From positions 1 through 26,260 of the forward strand of contig JBBIOM010000028.1 in the NCBI GenBank assembly GCA_037443365.1: 26,260 nucleotides of DNA, read 5' to 3'. The DNA comes from Armatimonadota bacterium. GTDB taxonomy: Bacteria; Sysuimicrobiota; Sysuimicrobiia; Sysuimicrobiales; Humicultoraceae. A program made the position numbers and the translations under genes. Shown in pieces: positions 4,883 to 22,002 of the stretch; positions within the stretch are counted from its first letter, which is position 1; each line of letters begins with the position of its first letter. The notes under the pieces are model-generated. The model saw nothing but the letters and a program-made list of their open reading frames with translations, was not told the DNA's origin and ran no database searches.

Positions 4883-6775
4883 ATGCCTGCACAGACGGTA
4901 GTTGACAGCCTCAAACTGCTCGTCGGAGGGGTCCAGCTCCGCGACGCGGTTACCACGGTTACGGACATCCTCGGGAAGCTGTTCGTACGATCCGGGCTGC
5001 ACGTCCTGGCCATGGAGAGGGGATACGCCTCGACGATCTACGGCGCCCACCAGTTCGACCCGATGGTCGTTTCAGTCGCCCCACCGCTCTCCTACGGCGA
5101 CGATTGCAGCGATATTCTCGTCGCGTTGGAGCACGATTCCAACGTTGACGCACCCATCCAGCCCAATCGCGACACGATTCTGCGGCACGGCGGGAACCTG
5201 ATTGACCATGGGGTCCTGATCTACGACAACAGCAACGACACCGTGGATGTGAGCGATCTCCAGGCACGCGGGATTCGGGTCTTCCCCATACCGGCCCGCC
5301 GGATCGCGCAGCGCGAGTTGCGACTCGAGGTGACGAAGAACACGATCATCTCCGGCGCGCTGCTGCGCCTGCTCGAGTTCGACATGGACTACTCCCTGCT
5401 CCGCGCCTATCTGGAGGGGCGCTTCCTCGACAAGGGGCGCGCGGTTGTGGACGTCAACCTCGAGGCGGCGCGAAGGGGCCGGGCAGCGGTCGAGGAGGTG
5501 CTCTCGAGCGCCGGGTGGGACGGCATCGGCTACCGCCTCGAGCCGCAGCCCGCGGCGCCCAGCCTGCTGCTGACCGGCAACGAGGCCGTGGCCATGGGCT
5601 GCATCCTGGCCGGCTGCCGGTTCTACTCCGGCTATCCGATTACGCCCGCCACCTCGATCATGGAGTTCTTAGAAGAGCACCTGCCGCGGTACAGGGGCAG
5701 GGTGCTGCAGGGGCAGAACGAGCGCGAATCCATGCGCGCGGCGATCGGCGCCAGCATCGCCGGGGCCCGCAGCGCCGTGGGATCCTCGGGGCCGGGGATA
5801 TCGCTGAAGATCGAGGAGTTAGGGCTGGCCGGCGCGACCGAGACGCCGCTCGTGCTCATTGACACGCAGCGCGCGGGTCCTGCGACCGGCATGCCCACGA
5901 AGAGCGAGCAGGGCGACCTGGCGATGGCCGTCTACGCCGGGCACGGCGAGATACCACGCATCGTGCTCTCGGCAGGGACGGTCGAGGAGTGCTACGCCCT
6001 CGCTTTCGAGGCGTTCGACCTGGCCGACAAGTACCAGTGCCCGGTGTTCCTGCTGAGCGACCTCACCCTGACGGACGGCCGCCAGAGCCTTCCCGAGGCC
6101 TTTTTCACCGAGAGCCGCAGGCCCGTGATCCGCCACGGCCTGGTGCGCGCGCCGGACGCGGAGGGCGACGGATACCGCCGCTTCGCGATGACCCCGTCGG
6201 GCATCTCTCCCCGCAGCATCGTGGGCACCCCGGGCGCCATCTTCAAGGTGAGCGGGACCGAGCACGACGAGACCGGGCTCATCACCACCGATCCATCCAA
6301 GCGCAAGGCGATCGTCGAGAAGCGGATGCGCAAGATGCAGACCTACCTTCGGGAAGACGCCCGGCCGCCACAGGTGTTCGGCTCGCCCGACGGCGTCCCG
6401 CTGCTCGTCGGGTGGGGCTCGACCAAGATGCCGCTCCTGGACGCGCAGGCGCGCCTTCGCTCCGAGGGGACCGAGACGTGCGTGATCTACTTCACGCACA
6501 TCTGGCCCTTCCCTGTTCATCTGGTGGCGCCCCTGCTGCGGCGGGGGTCCGCGCTCATCGTCGTCGAGGGGAACTACTCGGGACAGCTCGCGTCGCTCGT
6601 CCAGCAGGAGTGCCTGATCGAGACATGCCGCGTCCTCAAGTACAACGGCCGGCCGTTCTACACGGCGGACATTGCAGGCGGCGTACGCCTGGTACTGTCC
6701 GGCGCGGCGCGCGAGGTCCGGGTGGGCGAGGGGGCGCCGGCCGCCGGCCCCCAGACACCGGCGGAGGCCAAGTAG
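4883..6775 (+). CDS. 2-oxoacid:ferredoxin (acceptor) oxidoreductase alpha subunit with fused N-terminal gamma domain
   Basis: LLTGNEAVAMG, GCRFYSGYPITP, SSGPGISL, QRAGPATGMPTKSEQGDL, EHDETG and VVEGNYSGQLA. KorA/OforA-like; substrate uncertain. Confidence 0.9.
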   Translation: MPAQTVVDSLKLLVGGVQLRDAVTTVTDILGKLFVRSGLHVLAMERGYASTIYGAHQFDPMVVSVAPPLSYGDDCSDILVALEHDSNVDAPIQPNRDTILRHGGNLIDHGVLIYDNSNDTVDVSDLQARGIRVFPIPARRIAQRELRLEVTKNTIISGALLRLLEFDMDYSLLRAYLEGRFLDKGRAVVDVNLEAARRGRAAVEEVLSSAGWDGIGYRLEPQPAAPSLLLTGNEAVAMGCILAGCRFYSGYPITPATSIMEFLEEHLPRYRGRVLQGQNERESMRAAIGASIAGARSAVGSSGPGISLKIEELGLAGATETPLVLIDTQRAGPATGMPTKSEQGDLAMAVYAGHGEIPRIVLSAGTVEECYALAFEAFDLADKYQCPVFLLSDLTLTDGRQSLPEAFFTESRRPVIRHGLVRAPDAEGDGYRRFAMTPSGISPRSIVGTPGAIFKVSGTEHDETGLITTDPSKRKAIVEKRMRKMQTYLREDARPPQVFGSPDGVPLLVGWGSTKMPLLDAQARLRSEGTETCVIYFTHIWPFPVHLVAPLLRRGSALIVVEGNYSGQLASLVQQECLIETCRVLKYNGRPFYTADIAGGVRLVLSGAAREVRVGEGAPAAGPQTPAEAK

Positions 6776-6778
6776 CCG

Positions 6779-7648
6779 ATGAGCGCGACGTCGCCCGAGA
6801 TCCTCGAGATGTGGGAGAAGAACGCGTTCCCGCGACACCGGATCCAGTGGTGCCCGGGCTGCGGAGACTTCGGGGTTCTCTCGGCGCTAAAGGCAGCGCT
6901 GGTGCGCCTTGGCGTGATGCCGCACGAGGTGCTCCTGGTCGGGGGGATCGGCTGCTCGGGGCAGACGCGCAACTATCTCAACGGCAACGGGTTCCACGGC
7001 ACGCACGGCGGCCCTCTTGGATACGCGCTGGGCGCCAAGATGGCCGCCCCCGACATCACGGTGATCGCGCTCGCCGGCGACGGCGACACGCTGGCCATCG
7101 GCATGGAGACCTTCATCCACGTCTGCCGCCGCGACCCGGCCGTGGCGCTGATCATGATGAACAACGGCGTGTACGCCCTGACCAGGGGTCAGGACTCGCC
7201 CACCACGGGGCTGGGCAGGGTCATCGAGGAGCACACGGAGGAGCATCCCCCGTTCGTGGATCCCGCACGGCTGGCGATCACGGCGGGCGCGACCTTCGTG
7301 GCGCAGTCGTTCTCCGGAGACCCCAGGCACTGCGCGGAGATCTACCTCGAGGCCTTCCGGCACCCGGGCTTCGCCCTGGTCAACGACTTCTCGCCCTGCG
7401 TGACCTACAACAAGTTCAACACCTTTGCCTGGTTCAGGGAGCACGTCGAGCACATCCCCGAGGGTCACGATGCCTCGGATCGGGCCGCAGCGTGGGCGCT
7501 GCTCGACGACTTCGACCGCAGGGGGAAGCTGCCGCTGGGGATCATCTACCGCGCGCCCAGGCGCAAGCGCGCTCACGCGCGGCTTCCGGTCTGGGAGGAA
7601 GAGCTGGAGGGAGTAGATCCCTCCCCGATGTTCAGCGCGTTCCGCTAG
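6779..7648 (+). CDS. 2-oxoacid:ferredoxin oxidoreductase beta subunit (TPP- and [4Fe-4S]-binding)
   Basis: WCPGCG, GIGCSG, the TPP motif GDGD...NN, and SPCVTYN. Confidence 0.92.
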   Translation: MSATSPEILEMWEKNAFPRHRIQWCPGCGDFGVLSALKAALVRLGVMPHEVLLVGGIGCSGQTRNYLNGNGFHGTHGGPLGYALGAKMAAPDITVIALAGDGDTLAIGMETFIHVCRRDPAVALIMMNNGVYALTRGQDSPTTGLGRVIEEHTEEHPPFVDPARLAITAGATFVAQSFSGDPRHCAEIYLEAFRHPGFALVNDFSPCVTYNKFNTFAWFREHVEHIPEGHDASDRAAAWALLDDFDRRGKLPLGIIYRAPRRKRAHARLPVWEEELEGVDPSPMFSAFR

Positions 7649-9347
7649 GCCCCCGGGGAGGTGGGTCCAGCCCGGCGAGGGCTTCCTCGACGAGCACCCG
7701 GCGCAGCACCTTGCCGATCAGGGACTTGGGCAGGCTCTCCCGGAACTCTATCCCCTTTGGGATCTTGTACGGTGCCAGGTGCGCCCGGCAATGCGCCAGG
7801 ATCTCCTCGGGCGTGGCCTGGGCCCCGGGGCGCAGGACCACGAAGGCCCTCCCCACCTCGCCCTTGTGGGCGTCCGGTACGCCTACCAGCGCCGCCTCGA
7901 GCACCGCGGAATGCGCGAAGAGCACCTCCTCGACCTCGCGCGGGTAGACGTTGAGGCCGCCGGTTATCAGCATCTCCTTCTTGCGGTCCACGATGCAGAA
8001 GAACCCGTCCTCGTCCGTCCTGGCGACGTCGCCGGTGTAGAGCCAGCCATCGCGCAGCGCCGATGCCGTCTCGGCCGGACGGTTCCAGTAGCCGCGCATG
8101 ACCTGCGGACCCCGGATCACCAGCTCACCTGTCTCCCCGACCGGCAGCGTGCGCTCGCCCCGCTCGAGGTCCACGATGCGCGCGTCGGTGTCCGGCACCG
8201 GAACGCCTATGCTGCCGCTCTTGCGCAGCCCGGCCAGCGGGTTGACGTGCGTCACCGGCGAGGCCTCGGTCAGGCCGTATCCCTCGACCAGGCTGCCCCC
8301 GGTCATGCGCTCGAAGCGCGACTGCACCTCGGCGGGCAGCGCGGCGGCGCCGCTGATGCATGCCCGAATCGAGCGGAGATCGTATCTGCCGGTGGCGGGG
8401 TGGTTGACCAGCGCATTGTATAGCGTCGGAACCCCGGGGAGCTGGTCGGGCCGGTAGCGGGCAATGGCCCGCAGCACGGCCTTCATCTCGAAGCGCGGCA
8501 GGAGCACCATGCGCCCGCCCCGCAGAAGGGTGCCGTTCATCACGACCGTCATCGCGTAGGAGTGAAAGAGCGGCAGCACGCCCAGGGTGGTGCCCGTGGC
8601 GTCCGGCGGCGCTACGTACCACGAGGCGCTCTGGCTCGCGTTGGCCACCAGGTTGCCGTGCGTGAGCATCGCGGCCTTGGGTGTGCCGGTCGTGCCGCCC
8701 GTGTAGAGCAACACGGCCACCTCTTCGCTGCCCTGCGCGGCCTGCTCGGCCAGGGCGGCGGCGCGCGCGATGTCGCGGTAGCGGTGCGTTCTCGCGTCCG
8801 GGGCGACCGGCGGCCACTCCCTGCGCAGGCGCGCGCGCAGGGGATACAGCAGGCGCAGCGGCGCCGGGAAGAACTCGTTGATGCGCGTCACGATGACGTG
8901 CGCGAGGCAGCCGGCACCCGCGGCCCGGACGCGCTCCGCGAAGAGGTCCAGTGTCACCGCGACCCTTGCCCCGCAGTCGGCCAGCTGTCCGGCTACCTCG
9001 CGCTCCACGTAGAGGGGGTTGAACGGCACCACCACGCCCCCGGCCTTCAGCGTCCCGTAGTAGGCGATCACGAACTGGGGGCAGTTGGGCAGGTGGAGCG
9101 ACACCCGGTCCCCGGGCCGCACGCCCAGCGCCCGCAGGCCTCCGGCGAAGCGGTCGGCCAGGTCGCGCAGGGCTATGTAGGCGAGATCGCGTCCGAAGAA
9201 CGTGACCGCCGGGCGGCGAGGATACCGCCCGGCGGCGTCGTCCAGCAGGTGCTGCAGCGGCCGGTCAGGGTAGGCGATCGTCGCGGGCACTCCGGGCTCG
9301 TAGTGCCGCAGCCACGGCCGTGACTCGATCGGCGCCTGGCTGTTCAT
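7632..9347 (-). CDS. fadD: Long-chain-fatty-acid--CoA ligase (AMP-forming)
   Basis: YTGGTTGTPK, EGYGLTEASP, GWLYTGD, DRKKEMLITGG.NVYPREVE and PKSLIGKVLR. Confidence 0.92.
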   Translation of the reverse strand: MNSQAPIESRPWLRHYEPGVPATIAYPDRPLQHLLDDAAGRYPRRPAVTFFGRDLAYIALRDLADRFAGGLRALGVRPGDRVSLHLPNCPQFVIAYYGTLKAGGVVVPFNPLYVEREVAGQLADCGARVAVTLDLFAERVRAAGAGCLAHVIVTRINEFFPAPLRLLYPLRARLRREWPPVAPDARTHRYRDIARAAALAEQAAQGSEEVAVLLYTGGTTGTPKAAMLTHGNLVANASQSASWYVAPPDATGTTLGVLPLFHSYAMTVVMNGTLLRGGRMVLLPRFEMKAVLRAIARYRPDQLPGVPTLYNALVNHPATGRYDLRSIRACISGAAALPAEVQSRFERMTGGSLVEGYGLTEASPVTHVNPLAGLRKSGSIGVPVPDTDARIVDLERGERTLPVGETGELVIRGPQVMRGYWNRPAETASALRDGWLYTGDVARTDEDGFFCIVDRKKEMLITGGLNVYPREVEEVLFAHSAVLEAALVGVPDAHKGEVGRAFVVLRPGAQATPEEILAHCRAHLAPYKIPKGIEFRESLPKSLIGKVLRRVLVEEALAGLDPPPRGPSGTR

Positions 9348-9375
9348 GCTCCGCCCGCTCCCGCTCCCCGCGCTG

Positions 9376-11154
9376 CTAGCAGGTGTACCTGCCCGCCTTG
9401 ATCACCGCCGCGGCGATCTGGCGTCCGAGGCCAACCGTGTTCACCGCGGGGATCTTCAGGAACCGCCGCAGGCCGGAGAGCATCGTGCGCAGCGTGTCGC
9501 CATCCTCTGTTGCGGCCAGCACCCTTCGCGCGTTGGTCTCGATGCGCGGCAGTGCCTCATCGAGGAAGTACCGCGCCATCGCCGCCTGCAGCCCCGCGGA
9601 CTGCCCACCGCGCGCCGCGGTCTTGGCCGCGCGCAGCACCGCGCTCTCGCAGGCGAACAGGTCGATCGCCATGTCGGCTATGCCGCCGAGGATCTCCTGC
9701 TGGTTCTCCAGCTCGGTCAGGTACTTCTGGGTGGCGGCGCCGGCCGCGAACAGGGTCGCGCGGCGCGCCGCGTCCAGGAGCCGGCGCTCCTCGGCCAGCG
9801 GTCCGGAGACCGCGGCATCCCCGCCGACGGTCGCGGAAAGCATCTCGCCCGCCACCTTCTGCGCGGCCGCGAACAGCCCCAGCCGGCCCTTCTGCGCCCG
9901 GCGCAGCAGCATCGCGGGGATGAGCAGGCGGTTGATCTCGTTCGTGCCCTCGAAGATCCTGTTGATGCGGGCGTCCCGGTAGGCCCTCGCCACGGCGTAC
10001 TCCTCGACGAAGCCGTAGCCCCCGTGGATCTGCAGCGCCTCGTCCACGACAAGGTCGAGTACCTCGGAGGCCAACACCTTGTTGAGCGAGCACTCGACGG
10101 CGTACTCCTCCAGCGCCGCCACCACCTGGCTGCTGTCGTAGGCATCGCCGCCCAGCGCCTCGCTGATGAGGCCGCCGGTGCGGTAGAGCGTGCTTTCGGC
10201 GGCGAAGGTCGCCGAGGCCATCCGCGCCAGCTTCTGCTGAATCAGGCCGAACTCGCTGATGGCCTTGCCGAACTGCTTGCGCTCGTTCGCGTAGGGCACG
10301 GCCTCGCGCATCGCGAAGCGCGAGCCGCCCACGCACCCGGCCGCCAGGTAGAAGCGGCCGACGTTGAGGATGTTGAAGGCGATCTTGTGCCCCTGGCCTA
10401 CCTCGCCCAGCAGGTTCTCGGCCGGCACGCGCGCGCCCTCGAGGAAGATCGTGGCGGTCGAGCAGCCCTTGATGCCGAGCTTGTGCTCTTCCTCGCCTAT
10501 GGTCACGCCCTCGGTGCCGCGCTCGACGATGAAGCACGAGTGGTGCTCGCCGTCCACCTTGGCGTAGACGAGATAGATGTCCGCCATCCGCGCGTTGGTG
10601 ATGAACTGCTTGACCCCGGTGATCACGTAGTGCGAGCCGTCCGGGCTGCGCGTCGCGCGCGCCCGTATGGCCATCGCGTCGCTCCCTGCGGTGGGCTCGG
10701 TCAGGGCATAGCTGCTCACCCACTCGCCCGACGCCAGGAGGGGGAGGTACTTCTTCTTCTGCTCCTCGGTGCCGAAGAACACGATGGGCAGCGTACCGAT
10801 GCCGGTGTGCGCGCTCACCATGGTTGCGAAGGCAGCCGCCGAGCTCATCGAGTCCTTGATGACCAGCGCCGAGATCTTGTCCAGGCCGCCGCCCCCGTAG
10901 GCCTCGGGCACGTCGGCTCCCAGGAAGCCCAGCTCCCCGAACCCGCGGAACAGCTTGACCATCAGGTCCCAGTCGTGCGCCTCGGTCTCCTTGATGCGGG
11001 GGTGGACCTCCTGCTCCAGGTACTGCTCCACCGTGCGCTGAACCAGACGGTGGTCGTCGGTTAGGTCCTCGGGCGTGAACACCGCCTCCGGGGCCGTGGG
11101 TCCGACGACGAATCCGCCGCCGGGGATCGTAACCTGCGCCGTCTTGGGGTCCAT
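9376..11154 (-). CDS. fadE: Acyl-CoA dehydrogenase, Bacillus FadE(YusJ)-type with C-terminal extension, 592 aa
   Basis: GGGF...FTPED N-terminus, YALTEPTAGSDA, KQFITN, ERKQFG, QIHGGYGF and RIFEGTNEINR. RBS AGGAGG precedes ATG 11154. Confidence 0.9.
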   Translation of the reverse strand: MDPKTAQVTIPGGGFVVGPTAPEAVFTPEDLTDDHRLVQRTVEQYLEQEVHPRIKETEAHDWDLMVKLFRGFGELGFLGADVPEAYGGGGLDKISALVIKDSMSSAAAFATMVSAHTGIGTLPIVFFGTEEQKKKYLPLLASGEWVSSYALTEPTAGSDAMAIRARATRSPDGSHYVITGVKQFITNARMADIYLVYAKVDGEHHSCFIVERGTEGVTIGEEEHKLGIKGCSTATIFLEGARVPAENLLGEVGQGHKIAFNILNVGRFYLAAGCVGGSRFAMREAVPYANERKQFGKAISEFGLIQQKLARMASATFAAESTLYRTGGLISEALGGDAYDSSQVVAALEEYAVECSLNKVLASEVLDLVVDEALQIHGGYGFVEEYAVARAYRDARINRIFEGTNEINRLLIPAMLLRRAQKGRLGLFAAAQKVAGEMLSATVGGDAAVSGPLAEERRLLDAARRATLFAAGAATQKYLTELENQQEILGGIADMAIDLFACESAVLRAAKTAARGGQSAGLQAAMARYFLDEALPRIETNARRVLAATEDGDTLRTMLSGLRRFLKIPAVNTVGLGRQIAAAVIKAGRYTC

Positions 11155-11167
11155 GCGTCCACTCCTC

Positions 11168-12343
11168 CTATGCCGCTTCAAAGATGCCGGCGGCGCCCAT
11201 TCCGCCGCCGATGCACATCGTCACCATTCCGTAGCGCGCCCCCCGCCGGCGCATCTCGTACAGCAGGCTCGCCGTCAGCTTCGCGCCGGTGCAGCCCAGC
11301 GGGTGGCCCAGGGCGATGGCGCCGCCGTTGACGTTGACGCGATCCGGGTCTAGCCCCGCCTCCCGGACCACCGCAACCGCCTGCGCCGCGAAGGCCTCGT
11401 TCAACTCGATCACGCCGACGTCGTCCAGTTGCAGGCCTGCCAGGGCCAGGGCCTTGGGGATGGCCCGAACCGGGCCTACGCCCATCTCCTCCGGGGCCAC
11501 CCCGGCCACGGCGAACGCCCGGAAGATGCCCAGCGGCTTCACCTTGAGCCGCCGCGCACGCCGGGCGGACATGACCACCGCCGCGGCCGCGCCGTCGCTG
11601 GTCTGCGAGGAGTTGCCCGCGGTGATCGTGCCCTTGGCTGAGAAGGCCGGCCGCAGCTTCGCCAGGGCCTCCAGGGAGGTGTCGGCGCGGACCCCCTCGT
11701 CCGCGGTCAGGTTGATCTCCTCCCGGCGCGGCCGCCCGCCGTCCGCGGTCCAGCGCGCGGCGGCGACCGGCACGATCTCCTCGACGAACCTGCCCGCCTG
11801 CTGGGCCGCGGCCGCGTTCATGTGGCTGCGCAGGGCGAACCGGTCCTGATCCTCGCGGGAGACGCCGTAGCGCTCGGCCACGACCTCCGCGGTCAGGCCC
11901 ATGGACAGGTAGACCTCGGGCCAGTGCTCCGTGAAGTGCGGATTCGGCGCGTACTTGTTCCCCGTCATCGGCACCATGCTCATGCTCTCGGTGCCACCGG
12001 CCACCACGACCTCGTTCTGCCCGGTCATCACCTGGTGGGCCGCCATGGCGATCGCCTGGAGCCCAGAGGAGCAGTACCGGTTGACCGTCATCGCCGAGGT
12101 GGTGATGGGCAGGCCGGCGCGCAGCGCCACCACCCTGGCCACGTTCATCCCCTGCTCGGCTTCGGGGAAGGCGCAGCCCAGGATGCAGTCCTCGACCTCC
12201 TCGGGGGCGAGCCCCTCCACGCGCCGCACCGCCTCGCGCACGGCGATGGCGGCAAGCTCGTCGGGCCGCGTGTCCTTCAACGCCCCGCGCGGCGCCTTGC
12301 CCACCGGGGTGCGTACGCATGACACAACGACTGCTTCTCGCAT
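11168..12343 (-). CDS. fadA: Acetyl-CoA C-acyltransferase (3-ketoacyl-CoA thiolase)
   Basis: NRYCSSG (catalytic Cys), [16 protein letters not shown] and CIGGGMG. Confidence 0.95.
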
Positions 12344-12362
12344 CGCACGACTCCCTTCATAG

Positions 12363-12383
12363 GCCGGCGCCTGTGGCGCCGGC
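12363..12383. other. Intergenic hairpin between fadN and fadA
   Basis: GCCGGCGCC-TGT-GGCGCCGGC, a perfect 9-bp stem just upstream of the fadA RBS. Confidence 0.5.
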
Positions 12384-12395
12384 AGATCGTTACCG

Positions 12396-14819
<2,424 letters not shown>

Positions 14820-14931
14820 CGAGAGGGTCACCATCCTGCTCTCAGGTGGCTTACATTGTGGGCTTCGTCGAGCAACGCGCATCCTCCTTGCAGGGATGCG
14901 AATCCCTCTGGGATCTCTGGGCTACCTCAGA

Positions 14932-17235
14932 CTACTGCGGCGCTAGCACCAGCCTTCCGGCAGCGGCCTCCTCGATCTTCTGCCGCGAGAACAGCAGCGG
15001 CACGTACTCGCCCCGGGCCCAGCGGCCCGCGTAGTCGCGGTAGTGCCGGTGGAAGGGTAGCCCGCTCTGCCCTGTGGTGTGGATCACAAGCGACCGGTCC
15101 CAGTCCGCCGGGTCGAGGATCTGCCGGTACGAGGCCACGATCACCTGGCGGAACGGCTCCTCGGGGTTGAAGGCGCTGTTGTTGACGGTGAAGGCGTCGC
15201 CGCCTACCTCAGGCGGCGTCGTGTTGAAGATCCAGCCGAGCGCCTTGATGCGCCCGATCGGATGCACGAATGTCGGCTGGTGCAGGCGTCCCCATCGCCA
15301 CCTGTCGCGGTTGGATCCGAGCCGGCCTTCCAGCGTGCGTACCGCGTCGCGCAGGGCGGCTTCCACGAGCCGGTCGCGGCTGCCCCGCCACCAGCCGGAG
15401 GACGGGTCGCGCAGGAGCGCGAGCAGCGTCTGCACCGCTCCCTCGAACTCCCGCTGGTAGCGCGCGAAGGTCGCGTCATCAAGCGGCGTGCGGAACACCT
15501 CCCGGATGAGGGCTTCCAGGAGCGCCTGGTAGACGGCCGCGGGCCGGCTGGAGGGAGCGAGCACGCCATCCCACGCGAGCAGCTCGGCGAAGAGCGGCTG
15601 CAAGGCGGGGTCGAGGATTCGCACCGAGCGCAGCGCCTCTACCAGCGCCTGCCCGGGCAGCGAGGTCACGTCCATGTGGATGCGCCCGAAGGTCTGGGCC
15701 GAGTGGGTGCCTTCGGAGAGAAGCGCCGTGATGCGGCGCGCGCGGTAGCCCACGTCCCAGTCGCGGCCCAGGAAGTGCGGGTAACCCGGCGGCGCGATGC
15801 GGTTGTTGGCGGTGACTATGAATCCGGCGCGACGGTGGACGCTGGGGAGCGCCTCGAACGGCAGCCATCCTGTCCACTCATACTCGCCGGTCCACCCGGG
15901 GGCAGGCATCGCGCCCGTGCCCTTTGCCCGCACCGGGACGAGCCCGGGCATCTGGTAGCCGATCTCGCCGTTCCTGTGGGCGAACACGAAGTTCTGTGAC
16001 GGCGCGTCCCACGCGCGCAGCGCCTGCCGGAACTCTTCCCAGGTGGTCGCGCGGTTGATCCCGTCCACCGCCTCGATTATGTTGCTGGATTCCAGCGCGG
16101 TCCAGCGCAGCGCCAGCGTGGCGTGCAGCCCGCGCACGACGTTGTTGAGGATCGGGCCGTGGCGTGTGATGCGCACGATCTCGACCACCGGCTCGCTTCG
16201 GCCCTTGACCTTGATCGTCTCACGGACAACGGTCGCCGGGATCCACTGCCCCTTGTGCAGGTAACGTGTGGGATCCTCGGGATGAAACCGCTCAATGTAT
16301 AGGTCCTGCACGTCGGGGTTGGCGTTGGTCACGCCCCAGGCGATGTCGCGGTTGTGCCCGACGATGACGCCGGGCGTGCCCGGGAACGTGGCCCCGGCCA
16401 CATCGTAGGGCCCGCCGCTCAGGTGCATCAGGTACCAGATAGAGGGCATCTGGGCTTCCAGGTGCGGGTCGTTGGCCAGCAGCGGGGTCTTGGTCTCGGT
16501 GCGATCCCCGGCGACCACCCAGTTGTTGCTGCCGATCCCGGGGAGACTCTGCAGGCCCGTCCCGGGCAGGCGCCACCCGCCCGTGATACTGGGCGCGTCG
16601 GGCGGGTAGTCGGGCAGGAGCCGCTCCAGCGCGCCTTCGCCGAACCGCTCGACGAGCTGCTGGCGCAGTATCTCCATCCGCCAGTCGCCGCCCAGCACCC
16701 ATGCCATCAACTTGCCGTAGGACAGGCTGTCGGCCGGGGTCCAGGGCTCCGGGGCGAAGCGCAGCAGCACGAACTCTATCGGGAGCCGGCCGCGCGCCTG
16801 CGCGATGAAGGCGTTCACCCCGGCGGCGTAGGCCTCCAGGTTCTGCTTCGTCTGCGGGCTGACCGCGCCCAGGTGCGCCTCGGCCACGCGCCGCAGGCCG
16901 AGCGTGCGCAGGAACCGGTCGGTCGGCAGCGCCGCCTCGCCGAAGATCTCGGATAGCCGGCCAGCGGCGGTGCGGCGGTTGAGTTCCATCTGCCACAGGC
17001 GGTCCTGCGCGTGCACGAAGCCCTGCGCGAAGAACACGGAGCGGGCCGAACGCGCGAAGATGTGCGGGATCCCCCAGCGGTCGCGCACCACTTCTGCGGG
17101 ATCGCCCAGGCCCTGCACGCGCACGGTCCCGGAGATCTGGGGGAATGGGCGGCGCGCCAGGTAGACCCCGGCACCCCCCGCGGCGACGGACGCGGCCAGG
17201 ACGAGCACGAGCAGGCCGAGCAGCACTCGACGCAT
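14932..17235 (-). CDS. Penicillin acylase family Ntn-hydrolase (peptidase S45) with N-terminal signal/anchor
   Basis: RDRWGIPHI, QGFVHAQDRLWQM, the autocleavage site G|SNNW (Ser236, codon at 16530-16528), LLANDPHL, TRHGP, TANN and GQSG. Hydrophobic N-terminus. Confidence 0.92.
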   Translation of the reverse strand: MRRVLLGLLVLVLAASVAAGGAGVYLARRPFPQISGTVRVQGLGDPAEVVRDRWGIPHIFARSARSVFFAQGFVHAQDRLWQMELNRRTAAGRLSEIFGEAALPTDRFLRTLGLRRVAEAHLGAVSPQTKQNLEAYAAGVNAFIAQARGRLPIEFVLLRFAPEPWTPADSLSYGKLMAWVLGGDWRMEILRQQLVERFGEGALERLLPDYPPDAPSITGGWRLPGTGLQSLPGIGSNNWVVAGDRTETKTPLLANDPHLEAQMPSIWYLMHLSGGPYDVAGATFPGTPGVIVGHNRDIAWGVTNANPDVQDLYIERFHPEDPTRYLHKGQWIPATVVRETIKVKGRSEPVVEIVRITRHGPILNNVVRGLHATLALRWTALESSNIIEAVDGINRATTWEEFRQALRAWDAPSQNFVFAHRNGEIGYQMPGLVPVRAKGTGAMPAPGWTGEYEWTGWLPFEALPSVHRRAGFIVTANNRIAPPGYPHFLGRDWDVGYRARRITALLSEGTHSAQTFGRIHMDVTSLPGQALVEALRSVRILDPALQPLFAELLAWDGVLAPSSRPAAVYQALLEALIREVFRTPLDDATFARYQREFEGAVQTLLALLRDPSSGWWRGSRDRLVEAALRDAVRTLEGRLGSNRDRWRWGRLHQPTFVHPIGRIKALGWIFNTTPPEVGGDAFTVNNSAFNPEEPFRQVIVASYRQILDPADWDRSLVIHTTGQSGLPFHRHYRDYAGRWARGEYVPLLFSRQKIEEAAAGRLVLAPQ

Positions 17236-17353
17236 GATGCACCCCGGCGGTGAAGAATGGACGCCGAGGTCTTCGCCCCTCGGCCGCGTCCTCCTCTGGC
17301 GCCGGCATGCCTATGCGGACTATGATGGAGCGGAACTTCCGTTTGGGGGACCG

Positions 17354-19873
17354 ATGCCAGCATCCGCACCATCAGCCGGGTACCACCGGCTCCGCGCCGC
17401 CGGAATCTCGCTGGCGGCCAGCGTGGCCGTTCTGGGGGTCAAGGTGGCCGCCTACCTGGTCACCGGGTCGGTGGCGCTGCTCAGTGACGCCGCGGAGTCG
17501 GTGGTCAACATCCTGGCGGCGAACATCGCGCTAGTGAGCCTGCTCGTCGCATCTCGCCCCGCCGATGAGGGGCATCAGTACGGGCACGCCAAGGCCGAGT
17601 ACGTGAGCAGCGCCACCGAGGGCGCGATGATCGCGGCGGCCGGGGGCTGGATCGTGCTGACCGCGGCCCGCCGGCTGCTCGACCCGCGGCCGCTCGCCCA
17701 CCTGCCTGCCGGCCTCCTCCTGCTCGTGGTGGGCACGGCGCTGAACCTGGGCGTCGCCCTCTACCTGCTGCGCGTGTCGCGCTCCGAGCGGTCCATAGCG
17801 CTCGAGGCATCGGCCCGGCACCTGCTCTCCGACGTCATCACCTCCGCTGGCGTCTTCGTCGGGCTGGGGCTGGTGACCGCCACGAGATGGCTGCCGCTCG
17901 ACGCGATCGCTGCCGCCCTCGTGGGCGCCAACATCGGCTGGATGGGCGCATCCCTGCTGCGGCGCTCGATCAGCGGCCTGATGGATGCGCGGTTCCCGCC
18001 GCAGGACGAGGAAAGGATCCGCGCGGTCTTCGATGCGCACCGCGGCGACGTGGTGGAGTACCACGCGATGCGCACGCGCCAGGCCGGCGCCGATCGGTTC
18101 CTCGACCTGCACCTGGTGCTGCACAGGTCGCTCTCGGTAGGCCAGGCGCACACCATCTGCGACCACCTGGAGCACCACCTGGAAGAGGCGCTGCCCGGCG
18201 TGGACGTGACGATACACGTGGAGCCCTGCAGCGCCGCCTGCCCACGGTGCTCTGCCCAAGCGCAGGACCGGCTGCGCGAATGGCAGGAGGCGGGATTCGC
18301 GCAGCGCATCTGGGCCAGAGACGCGACCCTTTGGTCGGCCGCGTGGCCGGGCGGCCCTGCCCCTGAACTGGCCGACCGTCTCGGGTGGCTTGCCCTTCCC
18401 GATACGATGCAGGGCCAGATCGCCGACCTCGAGGACTTTGCGCGCGAGATTGCCGGGGCCGGGGTGCGCCATGTCGCGCTGCTGGGAATGGGCGGGTCGA
18501 GCATGGCTCCCGAGGTGTTCGGGCGCACGTTCGGCGCGGCGCCGGGCGCTCCAGGACTGATCGTCCTCGACAGCACGCACCCCGCGGCGGTGCGGCGCGT
18601 CGAGTCGCAGATGGACCTCGGCCGCACGCTGTTCGTTGTCTCCAGCAAGTCAGGAACCACGCCCGAGACGCTGTCCTTCTTGCGGTACTTCTGGAGCCGC
18701 GTCGCCCAGAAAGATGCGCGGCCCGGGCAGCGGTTCGTGGCCATCACCGATCCAGGGACCCCGCTCGAGCGCCTGGCCCAGGAGCGCGGCTTCCGCCGCG
18801 TGTTCCTGGGACCGCCTGACGTGGGCGGGCGGTACTCGGCCCTCTCGGTCTTCGGGCTGGTGCCGGCCGCGCTGCTGGGAGTTGACCTGCGGCGCCTGCT
18901 CGCCCGGGCGCGGCGGATGGCCGCGGACTGCGGGCCTTCATCACCCGCGCCGCGCAGCCCTGGGCTGGTGCTGGGGGCCGTGCTCGGGGAGAACGCAATG
19001 GCCGGGCGCGACAAGCTGACCCTGCTGGCTTCGCGCTCGCTGGCAGGGCTGCCGGCCTGGATCGAACAGCTCGTCGCCGAGAGCACCGGCAAGGATGGGA
19101 AGGGCATCGTGCCGATCGCGGACGAGCCGCTGGCAGCGCCGCTGCGGTACGGCGCCGATCGCGTCTTCGCCTACGTGCGCCTGGCCGACGATCCCGCGGA
19201 AGACCTGCACGCCTTGGCGAGCGCGCTCGAGGCCGCCGGACATCCTGTCTTCCACCTGGGCTTGGCGGAGAAGGCCGATCTGGGCGCCGAGTTCTTCAGG
19301 TGGGAGATGGCCGTGGCAGCGGCCGGGGCCGCACTTGGCATCCACCCGTTCAATCAACCCGACGTGCAACTGGCCAAGGACATGGCGAGAGAGGCCATGG
19401 CACGGCGCGCGGCCGCGGACGGGCGTACTGCTGACCTGGATGTGCCGGACGCTGCCACAGGCGATTGGGCGACATGGCTGCGCCCTGGCGACTACCTGGG
19501 GCTGCAGGTGTACCTGGCACCTGACGAGACCACCACGGCGCTGCTTGCGGAGATACGGCGCGCCGTCGCGGACCGCTATGGCGTGGCCACGACCCTGGGC
19601 TACGGTCCGCGCTTCCTGCACTCCACCGGGCAGCTTCACAAGGGCGGGCCCCAAAGCGGGGTCTTCGTGCAGATCGTGGACGATCCCGCAGACGACCTGG
19701 AGATACCGGAGGAGGGCTACACCTTCGGCGAACTGATCAGGGCCCAGGCCATGGGCGACCTGCGCGCCCTGGCTCAGCGCGGGCGTCGCGTCGCAAGAAT
19801 GAACGTGGGCAGGGATGCCCCCGGCGCCCTGGCGCGTCTCGCTCAGCGCTTGGTCAGTGCACCGGGCCCTTGA
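17354..19873 (+). CDS. Fusion protein: CDF cation efflux transporter (about 17354-18250) plus glucose-6-phosphate isomerase of the Tal-Pgi type (about 18251-19873), 839 aa
   Basis: CDF motifs: GSVALLSDAAES, HQYGHAKAEY, HLLSD, six hydrophobic segments, and the C-terminal domain YHAMRTRQAG..FLDLHL..IHVEP. PGI motifs: GMGGS, SSKSGTT.ET, VGGRYSALS, EQLVAESTGK.GKG, PFNQPDV..AK and GPRFLHSTGQLHKGG. There is no stop between the domains. RBS GGGGGA precedes ATG 17354. Confidence 0.88.
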   Translation: MPASAPSAGYHRLRAAGISLAASVAVLGVKVAAYLVTGSVALLSDAAESVVNILAANIALVSLLVASRPADEGHQYGHAKAEYVSSATEGAMIAAAGGWIVLTAARRLLDPRPLAHLPAGLLLLVVGTALNLGVALYLLRVSRSERSIALEASARHLLSDVITSAGVFVGLGLVTATRWLPLDAIAAALVGANIGWMGASLLRRSISGLMDARFPPQDEERIRAVFDAHRGDVVEYHAMRTRQAGADRFLDLHLVLHRSLSVGQAHTICDHLEHHLEEALPGVDVTIHVEPCSAACPRCSAQAQDRLREWQEAGFAQRIWARDATLWSAAWPGGPAPELADRLGWLALPDTMQGQIADLEDFAREIAGAGVRHVALLGMGGSSMAPEVFGRTFGAAPGAPGLIVLDSTHPAAVRRVESQMDLGRTLFVVSSKSGTTPETLSFLRYFWSRVAQKDARPGQRFVAITDPGTPLERLAQERGFRRVFLGPPDVGGRYSALSVFGLVPAALLGVDLRRLLARARRMAADCGPSSPAPRSPGLVLGAVLGENAMAGRDKLTLLASRSLAGLPAWIEQLVAESTGKDGKGIVPIADEPLAAPLRYGADRVFAYVRLADDPAEDLHALASALEAAGHPVFHLGLAEKADLGAEFFRWEMAVAAAGAALGIHPFNQPDVQLAKDMAREAMARRAAADGRTADLDVPDAATGDWATWLRPGDYLGLQVYLAPDETTTALLAEIRRAVADRYGVATTLGYGPRFLHSTGQLHKGGPQSGVFVQIVDDPADDLEIPEEGYTFGELIRAQAMGDLRALAQRGRRVARMNVGRDAPGALARLAQRLVSAPGP

Positions 19874-20360
19874 AGTCCCCGGGCTTGACCCGCTCGAGGA
19901 ACTTGCGGAACTCCTGGGGATCCAGCTCGTCGCTCAGCGCTTCCGGATGCTCTCCTTCCGCCGCCTTGCGCAGCGGAATGCCCTGCGCAGCCACCTTGTC
20001 ATCAACGAAGATCGGGGCGTCCGTTCGCAGGGCGATCGCAATGGCGTCGCTGGGGCGCGAATCCACCACCAGGGCCTGACCGTCGCGCGTCAGGTGGATC
20101 TCGGCGAAGTAGGTGGCATCGCGCACATCGCTCACGACCACGCGCGTCACCGTCGCCTGGAGCTGCCGGATCACCGCTGAGAGCAGGTCGTGCGTCATCG
20201 GGCGGGGCGGCTGCACGTTCTGCAGCCGCAGGGCGATCGCCATCGCCTCTGCCTGCCCGATCCAGATGGGCAGCGCGATCGTCTCGTCCATGTCAACCAG
20301 CAGCACCAGGGGATTGCTCTGCTGGTCGAGGGCGACCCGTCGCACCTTCATGAGCCGCAC
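19854..20360 (-). CDS. Bifunctional nuclease family protein (DUF151/BFN), 168 aa
   Basis: LPIWIGQAEAMAI, PRPMTHDL and DSRPSDAIAIALR. The start is GTG 20360 (MRLMKV...) after GGAGGGAG; ATG 20411 lies inside the -10 box. Confidence 0.88.
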   Translation of the reverse strand: MRLMKVRRVALDQQSNPLVLLVDMDETIALPIWIGQAEAMAIALRLQNVQPPRPMTHDLLSAVIRQLQATVTRVVVSDVRDATYFAEIHLTRDGQALVVDSRPSDAIAIALRTDAPIFVDDKVAAQGIPLRKAAEGEHPEALSDELDPQEFRKFLERVKPGDFKGPVH

Positions 20361-20409
20361 GCCGAACTCTCCCTCCGCGGGGGACGCCGATCCGTCTCCC
20401 CGCGCGCTC

Positions 20410-20418
20410 ATTATAGCA
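20410..20418 (-). promoter_or_regulatory. Extended -10 promoter element (TGcTATAAT) of the nuclease gene
   Basis: Perfect TATAAT at 20415-20410, preceded by TG-n, in a very GC-rich context. Confidence 0.65.
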
Positions 20419-20424
20419 GACCGA

Positions 20425-20456
20425 ACCCCGCCGCCGGAGTCGGCTGGCGAGCGGGG
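20425..20456 (-). terminator. Possible terminator hairpin downstream of phoD
   Basis: Imperfect inverted repeat CCCCGC-CGCCGG ... CTGGCG-A-GCGGGG just past the phoD stop, with a weak U tail. Confidence 0.35.
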
Positions 20457-20472
20457 CTCGGCGCGGAGCGCC

Positions 20473-22002
20473 TCAGGGCGCTGCCGTGATCACCAGCGGC
20501 GCCCGGCAGATCGGCCGGCCGGCCGCGTCCTTGGGGGTCAGGGTCACCGTGCGTGCGCGGCTGCTGATGTCCACCCTGACGTAGGTGTAGCGATCCACAA
20601 CAGCGCAGCTCATGCCCACGCCCTGCGGAACCGGGGCGGTGAGGAAGGCCAGCAACGCCGGTACGACGGCGCGCCCGGCCATGCCGGCAACCGACTCGCC
20701 GTAGGGCGTCGCCGCTATCGGGCCGGTGACGACCTCCTTCATACCCGTCGTCTCAAACGGCGGAGTGAAGGTGGAGAGGCGCACGTCGTTGACGAACGTG
20801 GCATGAGTGTCGCCGGTTAGCCACACCACGTTCTTGATGCCGCTTGTTCTGATGAAGGTGAGGATCTCTGCGCGTTCGGCCGCGTATCCCTCCCACCTGT
20901 CGTAAGGGTTGGCGAAGAACTCCTGGATCGGAGTCTGGTTCAGGATCAGCTTCCACGTGGCGGTGCTGCGGGCCAGCTCGCGCTTCAGCCAGATCTTCTG
21001 GCCGATCCCCAGCATCGTGCGGTTGGGATCGGCGAGCGTCTCCTGGCACCCCGGGGGAGAGGGCAGACGCATCTGCGGAACCAGGGGGGCGAAGGCCGCC
21101 CTGATGGCAGGCGGCAGCGTGGGCGCCAGGTCGGGCGTCCTGCTCCCGGGCGGGTTGTCGCAGACCGGGGTGCTGCTCGCGTGGCGGCTCCGGTACGACC
21201 GCCCGTCGAGCACGAACAGCTCGATCTCGCGCCCCCAGCGGAACTTGCGGTAGATGCGGCCTCCGGGCTGTTCGGCGATCGGCGAGTACTCCATGAATGC
21301 CCTGTGCCCTTCCGCCCACCTCCGGGGATCCACCGTCTCGCGCGCATAGTCGTTCTCGACCTCGTGGTCGTCCCAGGTGGTTATCATCGAGGTGCTCGCC
21401 ATGAAGTTGCGGAACGTGGCGATGGACCGGATCTCCTTGTACTTCGCGCGGTATGCCTCCAGGGTGAAGATGGGATTGGGCACGAGCGACGAGTCCGGGT
21501 AGATGTTGTCGCCCAGGTGCGCGAAGAAGTCGGGCCGGTCGGCGACCACGGCGTCCAGCAGCCCCAGCGACAGCGCCGGGACGCCGCCCACGTACCCTCC
21601 GTCGGAGCACGCCGAGTACGCGAAGGTCAGGTCGGCAGAGGCGTCCGCTGCCGGAGGGGTCACGAAGGTTCCGGTCTGGGAGTAGGCGCCGCCCCCGGAG
21701 CGGAAGCGGTACTGGTACCGGGTGGCCGGTGTCAGCCCCGAAGCCAGGATCTTCACCGTGAGATCACGCTCTGGGCTCGGCACAACGGTGCGCTCGAAGA
21801 CGAGCGACGCAAACCGTGGATCCGCTGACACCTCTACGGAGACCGGAGCGCTCCGCGCCGAGCGCGTCCAGAGCACCGCCGACGTCTCGCGCACGTCCCC
21901 TGAGGCCACGCCGTGCGGGAACAGCAACGCGACCTGCGAGAGCAGCGGCGCCTGCGCCACGACAACGGCGGCGGCGACGATTGCGATAGTGATTGCCCGC
22001 AT
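20473..22002 (-). CDS. phoD: Alkaline phosphatase D family phosphoesterase
   Basis: [14 protein letters not shown], metal-ligand motifs (SACSD, GDNIYPD, WDDHE, TGDTH), LDGRSYRS and [11 protein letters not shown]-terminal signal peptide. Confidence 0.9.

Follow-up and report, generated by a model that had tools for sequence, protein, structure and literature searches.

Can a metal exporter and a glycolytic enzyme come to share one polypeptide, and does the union have a meaning for the cell? The question is raised by a stretch of 26,260 nucleotides (nt) from an Armatimonadota bacterium (contig JBBIOM010000028.1, positions 1 to 26,260; the whole stretch is called the window here), in which a single open reading frame (ORF) encodes a cation diffusion facilitator (CDF) transporter that runs directly into a phosphoglucose isomerase (PGI). 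An earlier note, made from the sequence alone, had suggested that this tether couples sugar-phosphate status to metal efflux, or that it protects and localises PGI. The analysis presented here points instead to a real, young and singleton fusion, with both halves probably working much as before and no evidence of a new coupling; we give this reading a probability of about 0.7. The fusion appears to be a recent chance event, not a coupling by design.

A single frame for an exporter and an isomerase

The frame is open from 17234 to 19873 on the + strand and comprises 879 residues when counted from its first ATG. The ATG at 17354, which has a G-rich stretch just upstream (17345–17349), is the start that matches those of the stand-alone CDFs of relatives, and it gives a protein of 839 residues (P0001). 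The three Pfam domains of this protein, Cation_efflux (PF01545), ZT_dimer (PF16916) and PGI (PF00342; residues 367–581, 56 bits), all score above their gathering cut-offs. The main features are as follows.

17354..19873, + strand: fused cdf-pgi ORF, 839 residues plus stop (stop codon 19871–19873)
17405..17983, + strand: CDF transmembrane domain with six helices (Cation_efflux, residues 18–210, 132 bits)
17996..18229, + strand: CDF cytoplasmic C-terminal domain (ZT_dimer, residues 215–292, 75 bits)
18227..18250, + strand: C-x3-C-x2-C tail motif (C292, C296 and C299), conserved in this CDF clade
18264..18268, + strand: deletion breakpoint, within AGGAC; relatives have 80 more nucleotides
18266..19870, + strand: PGI half of the transaldolase-PGI (Tal-PGI) subfamily, residues 305–839, without the first 16 codons of relatives

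The ORF, the Pfam domains and the NCBIfam matches described below confirm the observation of the earlier note that a complete CDF and a complete PGI share one frame, and every motif listed in that note is present in the translation. As it had also stated, the junction contains no stop codon and no convincing in-frame start, which leaves the PGI half without a separate start. The only internal start candidate with a Shine-Dalgarno-like core (GAGG) upstream is a GTG at residue 283; the ATG codons at residues 352 and 379 were considered as starts of a free PGI and rejected, as neither is accompanied by a Shine-Dalgarno-like sequence. The product would be an inner-membrane protein of roughly 90 kDa. 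A scan of positions 17000–20500 for promoter and terminator consensus sequences gave none of either, a result that is uninformative in a high-GC, non-model phylum.

Origin of the fusion

In six genomes of the same genus (G002–G007), cdf and pgi are two adjacent genes on the same strand, separated by the CDF stop codon, five nucleotides and the PGI ATG. When positions 18150–18420 of the window were aligned with the six corresponding junction regions, the window showed a single internal gap of exactly 80 nt against 6/6 relatives. The segment present in the relatives consists, in order, of the last nine CDF codons, the stop codon (TAG in five relatives, TAA in G004), the five spacer bases, and the PGI ATG with ~15 further codons. 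In the relatives, the PGI frame is shifted by 8 nt relative to that of the CDF; since 80 equals 2 modulo 3, the deletion joins both frames. The earlier note was right that simple stop-codon loss does not account for the junction. The sequence AGGAC stands at both ends of the missing segment in G002, whereas the other relatives share AGG only; by this comparison, the ancestral microhomology at the breakpoint is therefore 3–5 bp.

The genes are also separate in other genera. In G014 and G022, the order is TAG, 9 nt and ATG, with both genes in the same frame. The same-genus relatives and the other genera thus place the two-gene state as ancestral, and the fusion as derived on the branch to this genome. 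An origin by an 80-bp deletion is, on this evidence, very probable. The ancestor would have carried a tightly packed, probably co-translated cdf-pgi pair, in which a deletion between short direct repeats (AGG or AGGAC) would have taken the CDF tail and stop codon, the spacer, the ATG of PGI together with its ribosome-binding region, and the first 16 non-conserved PGI codons. The predicted product is a complete FieF/MntE-like CDF exporter, a 9-residue Cys-rich linker and a complete SIS-type PGI. Because the conserved columns and the tail cysteines are kept and the tails of stand-alone CDFs are variable, the deletion removed only variable, non-conserved termini.

In a further genus, represented by G020 (locus L014, G020:C10), the stop codon of the CDF gene shares the sequence ATGA with the start codon of the PGI gene, a classic translational-coupling arrangement.

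The junction in assembled sequence data

A different explanation would be that the 80 nt are missing only through an error of assembly or consensus, or only from a minority allele, and that the two genes are separate in the dominant genome. The genome is a metagenome assembly of 69 contigs, and the junction was checked on contigs (Logan assemblies) rather than raw reads; contigs drop rare variants, and the most informative run, X1, probably represents the same data as the window. Set against this, one 4465-nt X1 contig with a depth of 43.2 spans positions 17000–20000 without a single difference; positions 18264–18268 are free of reported indels, joints and loose ends, such that a second assembler gave the identical junction at 43x. 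No sign of the chimera that the earlier note had raised for the region 18200–18300 was found. The junction is also crossed by a 198-nt contig of low depth (3.8) from X3, a further sample in the same study; this contig lies on 18092–18289 with 1 mismatch and 0 gaps. The contigs of runs X2 and X4 do not cover the breakpoint (X2 ends at 18243, X4 starts at 18318) and give no evidence either way. Collapse by the assembler is ruled out because the repeat measures at most 5 bp, far below assembler k-mer sizes, and an exact in-frame join of two ORFs is an unlikely product of error. An artefact or minority allele is, on balance, very improbable.

The CDF half

The CDF half matches the NCBIfam model of the CDF superfamily (TIGR01297) with residues 14–293 against model positions 3–284/285, at 213.6 bits with a cut-off of 82.35, and it belongs to the family by this full-length match above curated cut-offs. 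It also aligns end to end with Escherichia coli FieF/YiiP (PDB code 2qfi; residues 14–298 against FieF 11–292). The scores for two more specific NCBIfam equivalogs remain below their cut-offs (MntE, NF052621, 265.8 against 500; FieF, NF050169, 165.8 against 420). Six transmembrane (TM) segments followed by a cytoplasmic alpha/beta domain are indicated by the FieF alignment and by a low-confidence AlphaFold2 (AF2) model. Residues 9 to 209 of the model contain six long helices, and residues 216–291 follow a helix-strand-strand-helix-strand order (H-E-E-H-E); the model input consisted of the query and 44 PGI-only rows, so that the CDF half had no alignment rows. Five Kyte-Doolittle windows reach at least 1.5.

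The transport-site residues of FieF, which we take to be D45 and D49 in TM2 and H153 and D157 in TM5, are consistent with the alignment in their numbering. H156 and D160 of P0001 align with FieF H153 and D157, and E48 and N52 occupy the positions of FieF D45 and D49, with D45 of P0001 one turn earlier. The TM2 and TM5 site residues of P0001 are conserved in 118–120 of 120 stand-alone homologs; judged by these alignments, the E48/N52 arrangement is a clade-typical variant.

Of the 92 CDF columns with at least 97% conservation among 120 homologs, 89 agree with the consensus in the fused protein; the other three carry P70A, L214F and I233V. Pro70 (window 17561–17563) belongs to a PPD motif before a conserved HxYGH, and is invariant in 120/120 stand-alone homologs and replaced by Ala in the fusion. 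P70A is probably tolerated, since the corresponding residue of E. coli FieF is Ala as well.

The last strand of the CDF cytoplasmic domain is immediately followed by the C-x3-C-x2-C motif, whose cysteines C292, C296 and C299 are kept in the fusion and are present in 120/120, 120/120 and 119/120 of the homologs (P0127–P0246), respectively. The motif may be an extra metal-sensing or metal-binding site. E. coli FieF, where aligned to the motif, has the first Cys only. Stand-alone CDF tails extend variably, by 1 to 25 residues, beyond the last Cys. In the fusion, the motif forms the whole 9-residue linker (residues 292–300) ahead of the first PGI helix; residues 292–300 are coil in the AF2 model, with a predicted confidence (pLDDT) below 50 at residues 291–297.

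The PGI half and other PGI types in the genome

The PGI half meets the gathering score of SIS-type PGIs (PF00342) with 56.3 bits against 22. Residues 299–834 match the NCBIfam Tal-PGI model (NF007080) at positions 391–945/949 with 649.9 bits; the score lies under the cut-off of 712 because the transaldolase half is missing, and the Pfam scan of P0001 gave no match to transaldolase (PF00923), which leaves the protein outside the Tal-PGI family proper. The start of the alignment at model position 391 supports the idea, put forward earlier, that the CDF takes the slot of the transaldolase.

Conservation of the PGI half is nearly complete, with 128 of 129 columns (at least 97% conserved among 119 homologs) matching the consensus and A719V as the exception. 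The conserved blocks GMGGSS, SKSG, GGR, AESxGK, PFxQPDV and HSTGQLHKGG are all kept. The first conserved PGI column, R306, directly follows the breakpoint; stand-alone PGIs of the subfamily have a median of 22 non-conserved residues before this point (n = 45), and one homolog (P0011) begins right at the conserved PGI segment. The AF2 model of the PGI half (residues 301–839) has pLDDT values mostly above 90. The C-terminal domain of FieF/YiiP is cytoplasmic, and because the CDF half aligns with that protein from end to end, the PGI half should lie at the inner (cytoplasmic) face of the membrane, as the earlier note had placed it.

The genome is 97.7% complete, and the fused gene is its only PF00342 match and its only PF01545 match; its transaldolase is a separate short gene on contig C5. 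The implicit premise that the fused enzyme is the sole PGI of the cell proved wrong. A cupin-type PGI (PF06560, 143.5 bits) and a protein with a PGI/phosphomannose isomerase (PMI) C-terminal domain (PF10432, 166.5 bits) are encoded elsewhere, outside the window, at G000 C23:19866-20330 (-) and C24:8919-9368 (+), such that three PGI types are present in total. The cupin-type PGI was found in 8/8 genomes of the genus and in 0/5 others searched, and the PF10432 protein in 12/13 genomes, the miss being a 73%-complete genome. Since two other PGI types are encoded in this genome and in its relatives, PGI activity was probably redundant already before the fusion.

Rarity of the fused architecture

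A search of 34 genomes of the family gave a single match over residues 1–839, in the window's own genome, and a six-frame search of 41 related genomes likewise gave a full-length match there only. Protein searches covered a collection of 5.8 billion proteins and were word-based, so that fusions with a very different CDF could be missed. A junction-centred search with residues 200–420 (candidates of 461–1469 residues) gave 1168 matches; among the best 120 of these, the query alone combines PF01545, PF16916 and PF00342. The next match scored 189 bits against 493 for the query, and the others listed are PGIs alone or Tal-PGI fusions. When the CDF half was compared with long proteins (the 8000 candidates sharing most words were scored), seven matches were obtained, namely the query, two fusions of a CDF with a P-type ATPase and four long CDFs, and only the query among these 7/7 has a PGI partner. 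The same half gave 1798 matches among shorter proteins, the best 120 of which are all stand-alone CDFs of 254–378 residues, with the nearest of these 120 at 81% identity. The ESM Atlas yielded no usable match, a result that speaks neither for nor against novelty.

A literature search at the level of titles and abstracts gave no description of a CDF-PGI fusion. The claim that the architecture has no described precedent therefore stands within the scope of the protein searches and of the titles and abstracts covered; the architecture appears undescribed, but it is a singleton.

Four frames in relatives were considered as further fusions and rejected. In G014, an "869-aa open frame" has a TAG between CDF and PGI, and the same applies to G022. 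The 1164-residue frame of G032 is a Tal-PGI with a long open stretch upstream, and the 729-residue frame of G019 runs from a CDF into an unrelated gene similar to multicopper oxidases.

Arrangement of cdf and pgi in related genomes

Tight same-strand cdf-pgi pairs, with at most 100 nt between the matches, occur in 11/33 other genomes of the family; with the addition of G022, in which the PGI contig begins with a CDF tail, the count is 12/33, in three genera. The two genes are 0.9–4.3 kb apart in G010, G013, G017 and G024, with a ROK kinase, a transketolase or ndh between them. Other genomes have unrelated genes after the CDF, or have cdf and pgi on different contigs. The unpublished genomes G015 and G024 enter these neighbourhood counts only, and no conclusion rests on either. 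From gene order, the likely history would start with a CDF gene upstream of a sugar-phosphate operon, followed by loss of the intervening genes, formation of a tight pair, and fusion in one lineage.

These arrangements bear on the possibility that the fusion was selected as an adaptation, with the tether of PGI to the exporter coupling sugar-phosphate metabolism to metal efflux, or localising or protecting PGI. The tight pairs in three genera are in its favour, as is the fact that both halves are intact, and the arrangements imply translational coupling (ATGA in G020), which is a hint of long-standing co-expression. However, the fusion is present in only 1/34 family genomes, and no fused homolog was among the matches listed in the protein searches. 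In other genera, the CDF is found upstream of a sugar-phosphate operon with genes between, and the adjacency may simply be due to chance in gene order. No metal regulator or related gene was found near the fused gene among the annotated genes of the window and, to our knowledge, SIS-type PGIs are not metal enzymes. An adaptive fusion is thus improbable, and it is just as doubtful that the fusion is the end-point of a functional partnership in which the PGI and exporter dimers influence each other. If such a partnership did exist, it might, for example, link hexose-phosphate flux to Mn/Fe/Zn efflux, or shield PGI from mis-metallation. The coupling or protection proposed in the earlier note is unsupported, given that six same-genus genomes have two genes and one family genome in 34 has the fusion. 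Relatives with two genes and a fusion unique to this assembly had been set beforehand as the outcome that would tell against the proposal, and this is the outcome obtained.

In a more distant genome of the same genus (L018, G001:C74, ~1080–1160), transaldolase and PGI lie in one frame with a single TAG between them. A TTG follows directly after the TAG, and a GGAGG lies a few bases upstream. The sequence suggests either a Tal-PGI fusion that has come apart into two genes or a nonsense allele; the arrangement is a mirror-image counterpart of the window's fusion.

State of the fused gene

No frameshift or stop codon is found in the fused gene. Ratios of nonsynonymous to synonymous substitution rates (dN/dS) were calculated by the Nei-Gojobori method between the fused gene and its six same-genus relatives. 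Averaged over the whole branch, the ratio is 0.27–0.31 for the CDF half, compared to 0.15–0.35 among the unfused relatives, and 0.23–0.28 for the PGI half, compared to 0.22–0.27. Both halves look intact by these measures.

CDFs and PGIs are both homodimers. The fusion may be tolerable for this reason, and also because the two genes were already co-expressed and two other PGI-type enzymes provide redundancy. On the preferred reading, the exporter still transports metal and the PGI, now tethered to the membrane, is still active, and the fusion, instead of being a new regulatory device, has either no effect or a small cost. The ORF, the deletion, its restriction to this genome and the intact conserved residues are observed directly; that the gene is translated into a single chain, that the two halves are active and that the fusion is neutral is what we infer.

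The gene could instead be a damaging lesion, in which the short Cys-rich tether blocks dimerisation of PGI or CDF, or membrane insertion, with activity lost and the gene starting to decay while the cell survives on the cupin-type PGI and the PGI/PMI enzyme. Such a lesion would fit the presence of these two other PGI-type genes, which are older than the fusion, the short stretch of only ~9 residues that connects the last CDF strand to the first PGI helix, and the loss of the PGI start region without a good internal start; a singleton is also what a recent, not yet purged mutation would be expected to yield. The gene nevertheless shows no frameshift, stop or loss of conserved positions (128/129 PGI and 89/92 CDF columns are kept), and dN/dS is not elevated. 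Furthermore, the fused gene holds the only CDF match of the 97.7% complete genome, and loss of the transporter would leave it with no CDF exporter. The deletion is confined to non-conserved termini, of a kind that varies in stand-alone CDF tails and is absent from the PGI homolog P0011. A damaging lesion is unlikely on this evidence, yet it carries some weight.

Several points weigh against the reading of a real fusion with two working halves. X1 is probably the source of the window, so that its contig represents a second assembler but not independent data, and the X3 contig passes the breakpoint by ~21–25 nt, under the bridge criterion of 31 nt, which makes it a weak hint. The CDF half of the AF2 model is of low confidence, though this is uninformative given that the half had no alignment rows. 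The linker of ~9 residues contains a strictly conserved Cys motif, and the dimers of CDF and PGI may clash sterically. Finally, dN/dS averages the whole branch (dS 0.47–0.79), and can neither show selection since the fusion nor date it.

Genomic surroundings

The fused ORF is flanked by two genes on the opposite strand.

14932..17235, - strand: penicillin amidase family gene, divergent neighbour (Pfam, 795 bits)
19854..20411, - strand: bifunctional nuclease (BFN) domain gene, convergent neighbour, overlapping the 3' end of the fused ORF by 20 nt

Fragments of penicillin amidase are also found upstream of the CDF in relatives (L004, L015, L023 and L024), such that the neighbourhood is conserved. 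The start of the penicillin amidase gene at 17235 (-) stands back to back with the in-frame ATG at 17234 of the cdf-pgi frame, and the intergenic room up to the likely start at 17354 is only ~118 nt, which must hold both promoters. Other genes of the window encode a branched-chain amino-acid ABC transporter, PhoD, LemA, a GntR regulator, altronate dehydratase and a solute-binding protein, and the surroundings are ordinary chromosome. A beta-oxidation cluster at 7632–14882 (-) comprises acyl-CoA synthetase, acyl-CoA dehydrogenase, thiolase and a fused 3-hydroxyacyl-CoA dehydrogenase/enoyl-CoA hydratase; beside it, at 4883–7648 (+), lies a two-subunit 2-oxoacid:ferredoxin oxidoreductase.

Comparison with known systems

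Both parts of the fusion are ordinary proteins and the mechanism is textbook; the present evidence reveals no new regulatory link between metal homeostasis and glycolysis, and the fusion is not a new system. Its value lies in a natural gene fusion caught early and cleanly resolved, in which the ancestral two-gene state, the exact 80-bp deletion with its microhomology and the intact product are visible together. It is also a natural experiment in which a soluble, dimeric glycolytic enzyme is tethered to a dimeric membrane transporter by a 9-residue linker. If the fused protein is active, it would show the tolerance of both folds to tethering and offer a scaffold for membrane-localised PGI.

A small deletion across a stop and a start is a general mechanism for fusing adjacent operon genes. 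The same elements are seen here, with co-oriented neighbours, loss of stop, spacer and start, a restored frame and short direct repeats, and only the partner pair is unusual.

Compared to the stand-alone exporters FieF/YiiP and MntE (TIGR01297; PDB codes 2qfi, 3h90 and 5vrf), P0001 is alike over the full CDF length, but has 535 extra C-terminal residues, and E48/N52 in TM2 instead of the D45/D49 of FieF. The two fusions of a CDF with a P-type ATPase (P0121 and P0122; 1147 and 1179 residues) contain a CDF that is 42–43% identical and a complete ATPase in the same chain. Their partner is an ion pump and one of their two clusters has 31 member sequences, whereas the CDF-PGI fusion has a metabolic enzyme as partner and is a single sequence.

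The closest likeness in the PGI half is to the Tal-PGI fusions (NF007080/PRK09533), which belong to the same PGI subfamily and also have the PGI at the C-terminus, joined just before the conserved R306/W310. Relatives within the family carry true Tal-PGI fusions of ~920–950 residues. P0001, by contrast, has no transaldolase, and its N-terminal partner is a membrane transporter rather than a soluble pentose-phosphate enzyme. Tal-PGI fusions are widespread, whereas the CDF-PGI fusion is a singleton.

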